Under the pieces are notes generated by a model. It was not told where the DNA came from. It made no database searches and saw only the letters and a list, made by a program, of their open reading frames with translations. DNA of 43,588 nucleotides from Eubacteriales bacterium (GTDB lineage Bacteria; Bacillota; Clostridia; Oscillospirales; JAAYXM01). The translations under genes were made by a program, and so were the position numbers. Positions 24,111 through 27,232 of the stretch are shown one piece after another. Position 1 is the first letter of the stretch, and the number at the start of each line of letters is the position of its first letter. The stretch lies in assembly GCA_045533555.1 (NCBI GenBank), contig JAZSHZ010000315.1:1-43588 (forward strand), written 5' to 3'.

Positions 24111-24232
24111 TCACTCCGCCGATTTGAGCATATTTTCTATAAAAATTGCATATCCTTTTGTCGGGTCGTTGACTAAAACGTGTGTTACAGCTCCGACGAG
24201 TTTTCCGTTCTGAATTATAGGAGAACCGCTCA
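24111..24232 (-). pseudogene. Orphan 3'-terminal fragment of spoIVB (encodes [39 protein letters not shown])
   Basis: Co-linear with 26240-26361 at a constant offset of 2129. By hand alignment 108 of 122 nt are identical, including a 62-nt perfect run (24127-24188). There is no upstream spoIVB body. Confidence 0.85.
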
Positions 24233-24279
24233 CGAGTGTTGTCAATAGGGGACAACATTTTTTCAATTTTTGAAATCTT

Positions 24280-24342
24280 GAAGGAAATAAGCCCAAAATT
24301 GAAGGTAATAATGAGGGAAATGAAGGAAATCCTGACGGAAAT
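24280..24342 (+). repeat. Five direct 9-mers GANGGNAAT
   Basis: GAAGGAAAT 24280, GAAGGTAAT 24301, GAGGGAAAT 24313, GAAGGAAAT 24322, GACGGAAAT 24334. They lie just inside the left repeat of the cassette. Confidence 0.5.
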
Positions 24343-24446
24343 CTTATTTCTTTTTCAAATTTGTGTATTCTGTGCATTATCGGACTCCTGCATTTGTATG
24401 ATTGGAGTGCCACACTTTTGTAATAAAAGTTATACAATTTTTGTTA

Positions 24447-24473
24447 CAAAAAAGACAGGACTTTCATCCTGCC
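24447..24473 (-). terminator. Terminator of the two-gene cassette
   Basis: Minus strand GGCAGGA-tgaaag-TCCTGTC followed by TTTTTTG. Confidence 0.7.
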
Positions 24474-24489
24474 TTAATTGGTTTTGTGC

Positions 24490-24675
24490 TTAGTATGACT
24501 GTACTAACTCTAAAAATTCAACTGGCGTTGTAACAACGTCAATCGTACCTCCATTCTCATCAAAGAATTCAACCTCAAAGTATTTTCCATCGTACTCCAA
24601 AACGATAGTTCCGGTCGTACCAGCCGACAAATCGCTAAATTCACTCTTCAATCTTACAACATCTAATTCTTTCAT
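24490..24675 (-). CDS. Small 61-aa protein, DUF4926-like
   Basis: The pattern ELDVVRL...GTTGTIVLEYDGKYFEVEFFDENGGTIDVVT resembles DUF4926 from memory. It lies 21 nt downstream of the 396-aa gene and has a weak SD. Confidence 0.65.
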   Translation of the reverse strand: MKELDVVRLKSEFSDLSAGTTGTIVLEYDGKYFEVEFFDENGGTIDVVTTPVEFLELVQSY

Positions 24676-24696
24676 AGTATCAATCTTTCTTGTGGT

Positions 24697-25887
24697 TCAT
24701 ATAGCGGTTTTTAGTCCATAGAAGCTGAGCGCGTTTTTATTATAAAGCATAGTGACAGGTTTGTTTGATAAGTGGTTAATCATTCCGATATGTTCAGCAA
24801 TCGGAATAAGTCCACTATCCTTACACTGGATAAAGAATGCAAGAGTTTTTTTCAACTGCTTCTTTTCGGAATCGGTGATTGAATCACCCACACTGATTAA
24901 AAACTCGTCAACGGGACCATTTTTAATAACAGGAATTTTGCCGATGAAGTTACCAACCGAGCGAGAGACATCAGCAAATTTGTTAGCGGCTTGTGTTGTT
25001 ATTGCATCTTTCTTCAAGTCTTCAATCTTGTCGAAGCACTCTGTGTAAAGATTGCGGAACTTCATAGCGTGTCCTCTGATTTCGTCCTCTATCTTTGAAA
25101 GATACGCTTCTTGAAAATTTTTTGAGAGCATTATCTCCATATACTCAGATAATGCAAAAACGTGAAGTGCCAATTTGTAATGAACGAAGCGGTCGAGAAT
25201 TTGACCAATCTTGTAAGAGGCAGATTGTATCTTCAACAGATTTTTCTTGGCGGAGAGAAGTTCTTCGATTTGCTCAATGTAAGAACGCAAGTCCTTCATA
25301 GCGTTTCGCTTTATGTTCTTTACTTGGTTGAGATTGACCACGAGGCTCGCTTCATTCTCCCAATAGAATTTATATTCATCCATATAAGATGATAGTAAAT
25401 CATAGTCAGCGAGAAGTTGCGATTTCTTGTCTCGCTCAAGTATGCCAATAATTTCTTTCTGCCCGTCCTTGATGTCTTGTACTTGCTTAACTACCGCAAG
25501 AACAGCGACGGCAACCAATGTTGCTTTGAGACAAGCGGGACCGATAGCTTTATCAACGGGAATCCATCGCGCCTGCCCGGCAATACCGTTGTTCATAATC
25601 GTTCCTAACGCACCGGATCCGTCCTTAGCCATAGCAAGTGTGCCGGTAACTCCTTTAGGGAAAACACAACGATATAGTCCCTCTGCAGCAGGTGTAGCCA
25701 TCGTTTCTACGACCCCTGCAAAAGCCCCGCCGAGAGCTGCAATCTCTGTGAACGGAATTTTTGCAAGCGGTGAGGTTAAGTAATTGTCCTTAATTTCATC
25801 AAGAGCGTGTTCTACTTGTACGCTCGATCTCAAACTTTTACCCGATTCGGAAAGATCGTTCAAGACAAACAATTCGTTGTTATCCAT
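24697..25887 (-). CDS. Hypothetical 396-aa protein: Gly/Ala-rich N-terminal region, one hydrophobic segment, long helical C-terminal part
   Basis: AGGAGG RBS and its own promoter. Hydrophobic stretch ACLKATLVAVAVLAVVKQV. The remainder is Lys/Glu/Leu-rich and helical-looking. No family recognised. Confidence 0.75.
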   Translation of the reverse strand: MDNNELFVLNDLSESGKSLRSSVQVEHALDEIKDNYLTSPLAKIPFTEIAALGGAFAGVVETMATPAAEGLYRCVFPKGVTGTLAMAKDGSGALGTIMNNGIAGQARWIPVDKAIGPACLKATLVAVAVLAVVKQVQDIKDGQKEIIGILERDKKSQLLADYDLLSSYMDEYKFYWENEASLVVNLNQVKNIKRNAMKDLRSYIEQIEELLSAKKNLLKIQSASYKIGQILDRFVHYKLALHVFALSEYMEIMLSKNFQEAYLSKIEDEIRGHAMKFRNLYTECFDKIEDLKKDAITTQAANKFADVSRSVGNFIGKIPVIKNGPVDEFLISVGDSITDSEKKQLKKTLAFFIQCKDSGLIPIAEHIGMINHLSNKPVTMLYNKNALSFYGLKTAI

Positions 25888-25980
25888 TTGTGCATCCTCC
25901 TGTCTGGACTAAATTTGTTGGCATACGGCCACAATAGCCGCTGTAAACTTTGCAAGGCTTCGGCTTTGTTTAATGAAAGC

Positions 25981-26009
25981 ATTATAGCACAAATGTTAAT
26001 CTTTTACAA
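25981..26009 (-). promoter_or_regulatory. Promoter of the cassette
   Basis: Minus strand TTGTAA (26009-26004), 17-nt spacer ending in TGc, TATAAT (25986-25981). Confidence 0.55.
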
Positions 26010-26014
26010 TATTC

Positions 26015-26041
26015 AAGAAATGCTCACCCTGAGCATTTCTT
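26015..26041. repeat. Perfect 11-bp inverted repeat immediately upstream of the cassette -35 box
   Basis: AAGAAATGCTC-accct-GAGCATTTCTT. It could be an operator or the terminator of an older element. Confidence 0.5.
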
Positions 26042-26055
26042 CTGTTATTTGCTTT

Positions 26056-26100
26056 TCCGCCTCTGAGAGCATATTTTCAATAAAAATCCCGTATCATTTT
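26056..26100 (-). pseudogene. Third, degenerate copy of the spoIVB 3' end
   Basis: TCCGCCtctGAGAGCATATTTTCaATAAAAATcccgTATC aligns to 24115-24160 at roughly 36 of 46 positions. It contains a 1-nt deletion, so it is non-coding. Confidence 0.5.
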
Positions 26101-26202
26101 TTTAATTATAGTCAACAGGATATATCAAAATTGTTTTTTCTTTAAAATCATAAAAGAACAGCTGTAATTTATGTGTTTGCCGGTTAGTCTGAAATTAATG
26201 AC

Positions 26203-26235
26203 AAAAGCCCACACCGTCACATAGTATGGGCTTTT
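26203..26235 (-). terminator. Terminator after the intact spoIVB
   Basis: AAAAGCCCA...TGGGCTTTT stem with a 15-nt loop and a short T-run. Confidence 0.5.
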
Positions 26236-26239
26236 GTTG

Positions 26240-27232
26240 CTATCCTGCCGAGTTAAGCATATTTTCTATAAAAATTGCATATCCTTTTGTCGGGTCGTTG
26301 ACTAAAACGTGTGTTACCGCACCAACCAATTTACCATTCTGAATTATAGGAGAACCGCTCATTCCGCGGACTATGCCGCCCGTCTTTGCGAGCAGGCGCG
26401 GGTCGGTCGCGCGGATAAGCATATTTTTCGTCGCCTCGCCGTCATAATATATTGCCGTTATTTCGATTTCATATTCCTCGACGTCATCACCCTCGATGTT
26501 TGAAAGTATCGTTGCTTTGCCCCTTTTTATCTCTTCCTTCTTTGCAATGGGGATGCATTCGCTCTTTTCGATTTCCGCATTTTCGCCGAGCTTGCCGAAG
26601 ATTCCGCCCTCGGTGTTTTTCTCGATTATTCCGAGCGTATCCGAGCCTTTGAATTCTCCGACGAGCTCGCCCGGTGAGCCGCATTTGCCTTTTTTGACGG
26701 ATGAGACCTCGCTTTCGATCAGCTCTCCGTTTTCAATCGGGATGAGAAGACCCGTATCGGAATCGGAGATGCCGTGACCGAGCGCACCGTAGGTGCCGCT
26801 TTCCGCGTCAAGAAAAGTCATCGTCCCGATTCCCGCAAGTCTGTCGCGTATCCATATTCCGAGTGCATATTCGCCGTCTTCGTTTTTCTGCGGAGTGACG
26901 GTTTCTGTCTTCATCTTTCCGTCACGCATGAATTCGATTATGAGAGCCTTTCCGCCCGAGTTTTCAACCGCGCTCCGAAGCTCGGAGTTTGAATGGATCG
27001 GTGCGCCATCGACGCTCATTATGACGTCACCGGGCGCGAGTCCTGCCGCCCTTGCGGGGGTTGAAGCCGATCCTTCGCTCATATCGATGATGATTGCCCC
27101 GTCCGACCGAAGCCTGATTCCCGCCGTATGGCCGAGCGGGATGAGTGAGTCCGCGGCGCTCGCCGTTATTATAAAAGAAAAAATTATGATAACAGCGAGT
27201 ATAATTTTAGTTGATTTTTTCGCTTCTTGCAT
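26240..27232 (-). CDS. spoIVB: Stage IV sporulation protein B (S55 signal peptidase with PDZ domain)
   Basis: Signal anchor, PDZ ([13 protein letters not shown]), S55 core (GIGTMTF...[25 protein letters not shown]). AAGGAGG RBS. Confidence 0.9.
   Translation of the reverse strand: [330 protein letters not shown]

Follow-up and report, generated by a model that had tools for sequence, protein, structure and literature searches.

The window analyzed here, a 43.6-kb stretch of DNA (43,588 nucleotides) from contig JAZSHZ010000315.1 of an Eubacteriales bacterium, carries an intact copy of the sporulation gene spoIVB and, farther downstream, a detached second copy of the 3′ end of that gene. A sequence-only reading of the window had taken the two copies for attachment (att) scars bracketing an insertion that had brought a replacement 3′ end with it, and a recurrent junction in other genomes, a conserved motif at the end of the element and the low G+C content of the insert all bear this out. 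We think it likely that two cassettes in a decayed array without a recombinase make up the 2.1-kb segment, and that they belong to a family of small integrative elements targeting spoIVB by means of large serine recombinases (LSRs). Throughout, the replacement gene end borne by an element is called its P′ arm, the conserved motif at its other end its P arm, and the displaced spoIVB end beyond the P arm the orphan. The features on which the argument depends are as follows.

26240..27232, minus strand: intact spoIVB, 330 aa, an S55 signal peptidase with a PDZ domain; codons 1-290 read as host sequence, codons 291-330 as element-borne replacement
26240..26361, minus strand: P′ arm, a replacement 3′ end (MSGSP...IENMLNSAG, stop TAG), identified as a repeat copy with the same boundary in other hosts; with the upstream host sequence it makes up attL, proposed crossover TG at 26361-26360
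26021..26100, minus strand: third copy of the spoIVB end, 5′-truncated and diverged, identified by repeat search and profile; read as the remnant of an older cassette's replacement end
24233..24268, minus strand: P arm, a conserved element-end motif reading AATTGAAAAAATGTTGTCCCCTATTGACAACACTCG on the gene strand and abutting the orphan, identified by profile
24111..24232, minus strand: orphan spoIVB 3′ end (VSGSP...IENMLKSAE, stop TGA), identified as a repeat copy and by profile; B′ arm of attR and probably the displaced native end, proposed crossover TG at 24232-24231
24080..24105, minus strand: terminator of the displaced (native) end, an 11-pair GC-rich hairpin followed by TTTTCTATTG (a T run)

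SpoIVB reads through to its stop codon with a full S55 domain (Pfam Peptidase_S55, E=2e-84, and PDZ; TIGR02860, 356 bits against a cutoff of 305), the frame being full-length because a replacement end is supplied. The two full copies of the 3′ end (24111-24232 and 26240-26361) are co-linear and align without gaps at an offset of 2129, with 108 of 122 positions identical and a longest exact run of 62 nt (24127-24188); realignment and a repeat search of the window, which reported the pair as 115 nt at 92%, agree with the earlier description. Chance similarity is not the explanation, because a DNA profile of 113 spoIVB 3′ ends matches both copies (E=9e-29 and E=3e-28); the orphan also retains a match to the C-terminus of the S55 family in Pfam (E=1.8e-18). 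Identity between the copies is a mosaic of 25 identical nt, 19 nt with 7 differences, 62 identical nt and 16 nt with 7 differences. Codon comparison verified that the 7 differences in codons 299-305 are all synonymous and that the tails differ, NSAG-TAG in the intact gene and KSAE-TGA in the orphan, and the orphan does keep a terminator of its own, as had been claimed (hairpin at 24105-24080 on the minus strand, then a T run).

The G+C content of the insert is 0.35-0.40, against about 0.50-0.55 in the flanks on both sides. Within the intact gene, the G+C content of third codon positions (GC3) is 0.59 over codons 1-290 and 0.325 over codons 291-330; codons 291-305, at about 0.33, are like the insert and unlike the gene body. 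This drop points weakly to an exchange at codon 291 rather than inside the 62-nt identical run. As a way of telling which of the two ends is native, GC3 was set aside, being weak and only suggestive: both ends are low (0.325 for the intact gene and 0.40 for the orphan, against 0.59).

The junction and its recombinases in other Clostridia

A scan of one genome per GTDB species with the SpoIVB protein yielded 72 loci, in which the final 50 residues then served as query. In Oscillospiraceae, Lachnospiraceae, Acutalibacteraceae, Anaerotignum, Faecousia and others, an intact spoIVB is followed 1-11 kb downstream by orphan ends of the gene. At 20 junctions (the window and, by locus number, L033, L049, L060, L070, L071, L073 with two, L074, L075, L076, L077 with two, L078, L079, L104, L114, L117, L118 and L123) the orphan starts at the same codon, number 291, the Met of the catalytic-serine motif GMSGSP (usually V/M-SGSP). 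In other words, the insertions occupy one fixed position, are flanked by attL and attR, and leave spoIVB intact. Directly before at least 14 of the orphans stands the P arm, about 35 nt long, which reads AAAAAA-TGTTGGTCCTATATTGACACACTCG up to the boundary and is followed by a TG that is invariant in 18 of 18 aligned P arms. It is present in the window too, where a profile of 15 P arms has a single match, at 24233-24268 (E=6.5e-6); neither this motif nor the third copy of the spoIVB end had been noticed in the sequence-only reading. RNAalifold gives no conserved structure for the P arms (3 pairs, -0.3 kcal/mol). Since they share no conserved secondary structure, we dropped the idea of an RNA structure or terminator and read the P arm as a sequence motif, most plausibly a protein-binding site; we propose that it is the recombinase-binding half of attP.

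The DNA enclosed between the copies differs from locus to locus and includes genes for SLH surface proteins, Fic/RhuM, an OLD-family ATPase with a UvrD helicase, two-component systems, sugar metabolism and BlaI/BlaR. Tandem arrays occur in L073 and L077 (two orphans each), L104 and L070. Elements evidently stack at the site, because in L104 a further LSR gene of the same clade follows the orphan and in L070 a P arm is fused to the next element's replacement end; such P-arm/P′-arm junctions are found only inside tandem arrays (L070 and L104). Truncated orphans without a P arm, like the third copy in the window, are present in L022, L069 and L112. Most sites are empty: of 63 unbiased loci with 3 kb or more of sequence downstream, about 52 show no orphan and no adjacent LSR gene, in a count for which some loci are duplicated between the two collections. 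An ancient duplication carried by all relatives, which the sequence-only reading had held against its own proposal, is therefore not what we observe.

Complete relatives have, beginning about 95-350 nt beyond the stop codon of the replaced spoIVB end, a gene for an LSR with Resolvase, Recombinase and Zn_ribbon_recom domains (L033, L038, L102, L104, L114-116, L117, L121-122 and L123-124). Five LSR lineages, mutually 40-99% identical, show this arrangement, and one lineage, at 90-99% identity, takes in L033, L038, L102, L104 and L070. LSR homologues sampled at falling identity (P0135, 51%; P0140, 49%; P0156, 41%; P0187, 40%) are all encoded directly after a Peptidase_S55 gene, and a sixth lineage, 36% identical, is represented by the central one of three LSR genes, a trio with a P arm and an orphan at its end. 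Complete elements, bounded by attL on one side and by P arm and orphan on the other, measure 4.5 kb (L033), 7.6 kb (L104), 8.7 kb (L123), 9 kb (L114) and 11 kb (L117). No tyrosine recombinase (Phage_integrase) gene was found in any of the roughly 20 related spoIVB-site elements examined. The window has no recombinase in any of its 43.6 kb, according to Pfam scans of all large open reading frames and tblastn with serine recombinases, and the earlier statement that it lacks an integrase stands.

Several further observations were made on these loci. A second class of junction has a related arm, TTTTGTCCCTTACTTGACACAT, fused to the last ~10 codons of spoIVB (QIFIENMLEH and the stop) and not to codon 291; it is identical in three copies from two Lachnospiraceae genomes (L076 9150-9215 and 12972-13030; L063 18183-18250), and may represent either another position of attachment or a deletion derivative that has spread. 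In one LSR lineage the true P arm is preceded, ~140 nt upstream, by a second P-arm-like motif, GTGTTGGTCCTATTATCACACACTCGT (L033 13611-13638, L104 7691-7719, L114 18564-18591, L070 999-1025), where it may serve as an accessory binding site. Three tandem LSR genes followed by P arm and orphan are seen in L118 (8359-13469) and L120 (333-5113), with no intact spoIVB within 10 kb upstream, and L120 holds a further P-arm-like motif (246-279) joined to non-spoIVB sequence. The LSR gene of L033 (9546-11186) has an in-frame TGA near its 5′ end (ARKS-stop-YIL) and may be a pseudogene or carry a sequencing error. The LSR lineages at 40% identity have a conserved open reading frame of 58-60 aa in the interval from the replaced spoIVB stop to the LSR gene (L121 7650-7826; L123 7648-7830), a candidate recombination directionality factor.

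Strand exchange and the history of the segment

The sequence-only reading had the cargo enter by recombination within the 62-nt run. Strand exchange inside this core, implicitly by a tyrosine integrase, would make 26318-26361 native and 24189-24232 element-derived, and a perfect run flanked by diverged sequence is indeed a pattern typical of islands in tRNA genes or other gene 3′ ends. The relatives argue strongly against it. In each of the 13 pairs in which attL and attR were compared, similarity sets in at the codon-291 TG, and for L033 and L079 the two have nothing in common but this TG. Where one element is present in four different hosts, identity among them is 47-56% over the 90 nt upstream of codon 291 and 91-99% over the 150 nt downstream, which marks the former as host DNA and the latter as element DNA; the switch from host to element thus falls at codon 291. 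Apart from the window pair, fourteen attL/attR pairs reach 60-82% identity and have exact runs that span 5-24 nt, the low GC3 of codons 291-305 departs from that of the gene body, and the elements at this site are accompanied by LSRs and by neither the tyrosine recombinase nor the identical core of a tyrosine-integrase island. We therefore regard exchange inside the core as very improbable.

Serine recombinases exchange strands across a 2-bp overlap and do not require extended identity. We propose that the crossover is the TG of codon 291, at the outer edge of the repeat, which in the window would be 26361/26360 in attL and 24232/24231 in attR; the dinucleotide exchange expected of LSR elements is in this case deduced from comparative sequence. 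Since the other pairs have no long core and the window pair is an outlier among them, the 62-nt run seems not to be part of the mechanism and is very probably not the crossover site. Its identity probably arose by gene conversion or homologous exchange between the direct repeats; alternatively, the replacement end may derive from a close relative of the host.

That the far copy is the displaced native end, as had been suggested, is plausible, because its KSAE tail matches the closest SpoIVB relative, P0391, which is 92% identical and ends in ...IENMLKSAE; the intact gene of the window ends in NSAG. The closer SpoIVB proteins, 84-92% identical, are P0391, P0511, P0512, P0392 and P0393. Relatives at least 90% identical have varied tails (KSAE, DAAG, KSAG and NSAG), which is consistent with replacement of the gene end within the lineage. 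One member of the same cluster, P0513, is a 291-aa SpoIVB fragment on a 1,254-nt metagenome contig that ends ...GGIVRGM, exactly at codon 291 (GM/SGSP). An assembly break at the boundary of a repeat would produce such an end, and the case is suggestive only.

A single insertion, as originally envisaged, does not account for the whole segment. The third spoIVB 3′ end, at about 26021-26100, reads ..YGIFIENMLSEAEKQITEEMLRVSIS and then a stop; over 26049-26100 it is 71-73% identical in the repeat search, its profile match covers 26067-26095 (E=7e-4), and 38 nt of it are 89% identical to the spoIVB end of L018. We read this copy as what is left of an older cassette's replacement end, and the segment as two cassettes in a decayed array. 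Read along the gene strand, it comprises in order codons 1-290; the P′ arm (NSAG) and a terminator; a remnant of ~139 nt; the truncated older P′ arm; a promoter, a gene for a 396-aa protein, a DUF4926 gene and a terminator; a right-end module and P arm; and the native end (KSAE) with the native terminator.

We think it likely that autonomous members of the family enter spoIVB through an exchange of 2 bp (TG) at codon 291, which encodes the Met of GMSGSP. Because insertion at this point would cut off the last 40 codons of the gene, the element brings a copy of its own, the P′ arm, with a stop and a terminator behind it. Next to these, complete elements have the LSR gene, and at the far end the ~35-nt P arm is joined to the displaced native 3′ end. 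The new attL should closely resemble attB and so could receive further insertions, each shifting older elements downstream; arrays would grow in this way and then erode by deletion. For the window, the simplest history would be two successive insertions, the newer one into the regenerated attL, and a later deletion that took away, along with the body and P arm of the newer element, the 5′ portion of the older replacement end and one or more recombinase genes. We infer, then, that an LSR of this clade made the window junctions and that the LSR genes were lost afterward, in this order of events. An LSR is encoded by the complete relatives at the same site and not by the window cassette, which is at best a recombinase-less derivative of the family and not an autonomous member.

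Several facts weigh against this account. Neither an LSR gene nor a fragment of an LSR pseudogene was found in the cassette or elsewhere in the window; with no recombinase in cis, the putative link of the window to LSRs runs through the shared junction and the P arm. That P arm is divergent, scoring 21.6 bits where the best arms score about 35, and nothing like the left end of the cassette (26101-26239) was seen in the other elements compared. The window pair, at 93% over 107 nt with its 62-nt run, departs from all other pairs and calls for a secondary explanation. No excised circle or free attP was seen, and IMG/VR has no match to the 62-nt core, the P-arm consensus or the LSR protein. Look-ups of the exact proteins (321-aa, 396-aa, SpoIVB and EamA) and metagenome and genome scans found no empty site in the same species: the scans with SpoIVB gave metagenome relatives of at most 51% identity and a best genome match of 65%, and the empty sites seen are all in other species.

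Part of this would be explained if an LSR had made the junctions in a donor or ancestor and the ready-made array had been gained by homologous recombination, through transformation or conjugative transfer, with a double crossover in spoIVB and the downstream DNA or in the repeat. Such a gain, compatible with the two-cassette array we favor, would account for the absent recombinase and for the long identical blocks; the mosaic of identity resembles recombination or conversion tracts, the window pair is the outlier at 93%, and the tails differ among relatives of at least 90% identity in SpoIVB. Deletion of the LSR genes in place explains the same facts, however. LSR pseudogene remnants were sought in the LSR-less cassettes and none was convincing; a weak 17-codon candidate after the P′ arm of L077 (E=0.19) hints at loss in situ. 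We hold the ready-made array to be possible and do not prefer it. Much the same can be said of a cassette that is functional and non-autonomous, moved in trans through attL and the junction of P arm and B′ arm by an LSR whose gene lies in another part of the genome or arrives with an incoming element. Cis-mobilizable elements and pseudo-SCC elements, the latter named after the staphylococcal cassette chromosome (SCC), likewise keep their att sites and lack recombinase genes. The window has the corresponding att flanks of a related autonomous element (attL, P arm and attR) without recombination genes, both of its junctions and its P arm are intact, the unbiased sample has roughly 11 LSR-less cassettes with conserved P arms to 3 that bear an LSR, and other cassette subfamilies share right-end modules of 100-150 nt while their cargo differs. 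On the other side, no LSR-less cassette was found in two hosts among the loci compared, no circles were seen, and the truncated orphans show that arrays decay, so that mobility in trans is for now a tentative reading of the window cassette.

A bolder form of the same thought would make codon 291 an integron-like cassette platform, on which LSR-less cassettes of 1-4 kb are genuine mobile units that LSRs capture, stack and shuffle in trans. Each unit would end in a right-end module and a P arm and be followed by a copy of the spoIVB end, and every insertion would regenerate an attB-like attL; the window cassette would then be one such unit, with a promoter-equipped cargo of two genes, possibly a toxin/immunity or defence pair. 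We consider this rather unlikely. Local tandem duplication of the spoIVB 3′ end followed by an unrelated insertion, with no site-specific element at all, would also yield direct repeats in the same orientation, and we give it almost no credence: the junction has the same position in about 20 unrelated genomes and is abutted there by a conserved foreign arm, LSR genes are associated with the site, and the composition of the insert is foreign. The decayed two-cassette array remains the reading we prefer.

Cargo and surrounding accessory DNA

The remainder of the segment contains the following features.

26201..26237, minus strand: hairpin resembling an intrinsic terminator, directly 3′ of the replacement stop, with a 15-pair stem and a weak T tail
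26101..26239, minus strand: nearly empty first cassette, ~139 nt of terminator and AT-rich DNA between the replacement end and the third copy
25981..26009, minus strand: promoter-like site (TTGTAA, 17 nt, TG-TATAAT) upstream of the 396-aa gene, 10 of 12 positions matching and an extended -10, on consensus alone
24697..25887, minus strand: cargo gene 1, for a 396-aa protein with a small beta domain and a long helical bundle in an AlphaFold2 (AF2) model
24490..24675, minus strand: cargo gene 2, for a 61-aa DUF4926 protein (Pfam PF16277, 1.5e-12)
24452..24475, minus strand: terminator-like hairpin after the cargo operon
24269..24451, minus strand: non-coding right-end module, with short GA(A/G/C)GGAAAT direct repeats at 24272-24342

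The nearly empty first cassette has no similarity to serine recombinase genes. The only Rfam match in 23500-27000 is to Thr_leader, on the plus strand at 26131-26240; at 34 bits it lies below the gathering score of 55 (E=8e-4), it overlaps the hairpin on the opposite strand, and we regard it as spurious. In the right-end module, the GA(A/G/C)GGAAAT direct repeats are iteron-like and occur about four times between the cargo terminator and the P arm.

Pfam, PHROG, NCBIfam and PADLOC have no family for the 396-aa protein. The family to which it belongs is large (881 representatives at 50% identity); its homologues at 83-85% identity are found in other mobile elements, and homologues adjoin type I restriction-modification systems and recombinases. 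Some (L001, L002-L006, L008-L011) lie between a Y-family DNA polymerase gene (IMS) and a YolD-like gene in larger mobile elements, and in L009-L011 a trio of tyrosine recombinases takes the place of the polymerase side. Searches of the PDB gave nothing below E=0.1, either by sequence profile or by Foldseek of the AF2 model (pLDDT 76). Weak look-alikes among helical bundles and alpha-pore-forming toxins were not counted as evidence. It is speculation on our part that the 396-aa and DUF4926 proteins form a toxin/immunity or defence pair.

In many Clostridia spo0A lies within 134-300 nt of spoIVB; in the window it is at 12392-13192, 13 kb away, and 13341-26239 lies between the two genes. Since L018 has spoIVB, SpoU and spo0A within 1.7 kb, the spoIVB-SpoU interval of the window (14.3-26.2 kb, about 12 kb) is accessory by comparison of the two sequences, and it includes a TIR-domain gene and transporters. 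Recognizable att scars are confined to its first 2.1 kb, and a profile search from the orphan to the spo0A side (14.3-24.1 kb) found no further decayed spoIVB ends or P arms. The TIR-domain gene (19852-21666, minus strand; G+C content ~0.40-0.45) encodes a 604-aa protein with an N-terminal TIR domain (TIR_2, 2e-18; ThsB-like and SAVED_TIR matches in PADLOC) and may be a defence gene; an adjoining 105-aa open reading frame matches no family. Directly upstream of spoIVB, at 27372-29531 on the minus strand, is a gene for a 719-aa SNF2-family helicase (PADLOC DpdE, 459 bits; DrmD, 428 bits), with no partner genes of the DpdE or DrmD systems nearby and no tblastn match in L012-L023 at E<=1e-10. Three consecutive MatE efflux-family paralogues, 451-454 aa each, occupy 31125-35270 on the minus strand.

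Comparison with known systems

A full-text literature search on spoIVB with recombinase and attachment-site terms found no paper, within incomplete coverage and with the proviso that large LSR-mining studies may hold the clade unnamed; the family of spoIVB-site serine-recombinase elements is apparently undescribed. The spoIVB codon next to the catalytic serine is a recurrent integration hotspot in gut and rumen Clostridia, used by a broad LSR clade whose members are 40-99% identical, and where the site is occupied, an essential sporulation protease owes the coding sequence of its active-site end to mobile DNA. Clostridia that are hard to engineer could gain integration tools from the inferred attB/attP pairs, whose defined TG crossover falls in an ultra-conserved motif. 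The window itself is a modest result, a recombinase-less and partly decayed array with two cargo genes.

Elements with some of these properties are known from other sites. Cis-mobilizable elements (CIMEs) as well as integrative and conjugative elements (ICEs) accrete at the 3′ end of fda in Streptococcus thermophilus (ICESt1/ICESt3). There, as at spoIVB, non-autonomous elements have the att sites of an autonomous relative, accretion at one site is tandem and the 3′ end of the gene is replaced; those elements differ in having tyrosine integrases, an identical core and conjugation, whereas the spoIVB elements have an LSR and a 2-bp overlap, with no conjugation genes seen. Tn4451/Tn4453 and Tn5397 are LSR elements of Clostridia, with TnpX and TndX, and have relaxed targets (a GA dinucleotide). 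They too are small clostridial elements with a single LSR and a dinucleotide crossover, but they neither target spoIVB nor bring a replacement gene end. Several of the LSRs found here carry a DUF4368 domain, which we take to be a domain of TnpX-like proteins. Insertion of SPbeta into spsM, with SprA, is a case of LSR-mediated insertion into a sporulation gene, as described earlier (PMC5499854). Both SPbeta and skin (in sigK, with SpoIVCA) resemble the spoIVB elements in being LSR insertions inside the coding sequence of a Firmicutes sporulation gene. They split the gene, however, which becomes whole again only when the element is excised in the mother cell at a set time in development; spoIVB stays intact and does not need excision, and its elements are therefore not intervening elements in that sense.

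The closest analogue is the SCCmec/ECC group at rlmH (ECC, Enterococcus cassette chromosome), an analogue of the spoIVB elements and not a group to which they belong. SCCmec and ECC proper insert into the 3′ end of rlmH (orfX) by means of CcrAB or CcrC (PMC6222049), and an ECC remnant in strain BM4105-RF has attL in rlmH and attR downstream (PMC6222049). The target here is spoIVB and not rlmH, and the crossover would lie 40 codons before the stop, with a coding replacement of 120 nt that includes the catalytic-serine motif; hence the repeats are about 120 nt long, against 15-50 nt in SCCmec/ECC. A single LSR gene directly follows the replaced stop here, whereas a ccrAB pair lies inside the element there, and the hosts here are anaerobic spore-forming Clostridia. 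The likeness lies in the use of LSRs (CcrAB/CcrC in SCCmec/ECC), an attB within the 3′ region of a housekeeping gene that is conserved and left intact, attL in the gene and attR downstream of it, composite or tandem arrays, recombinase-less remnants that keep att sites, and highly variable cargo. Much like SCC at rlmH, the spoIVB site gathers a changing set of genes, among them Fic, OLD/UvrD-type defence, two-component, surface and sugar-metabolism genes.

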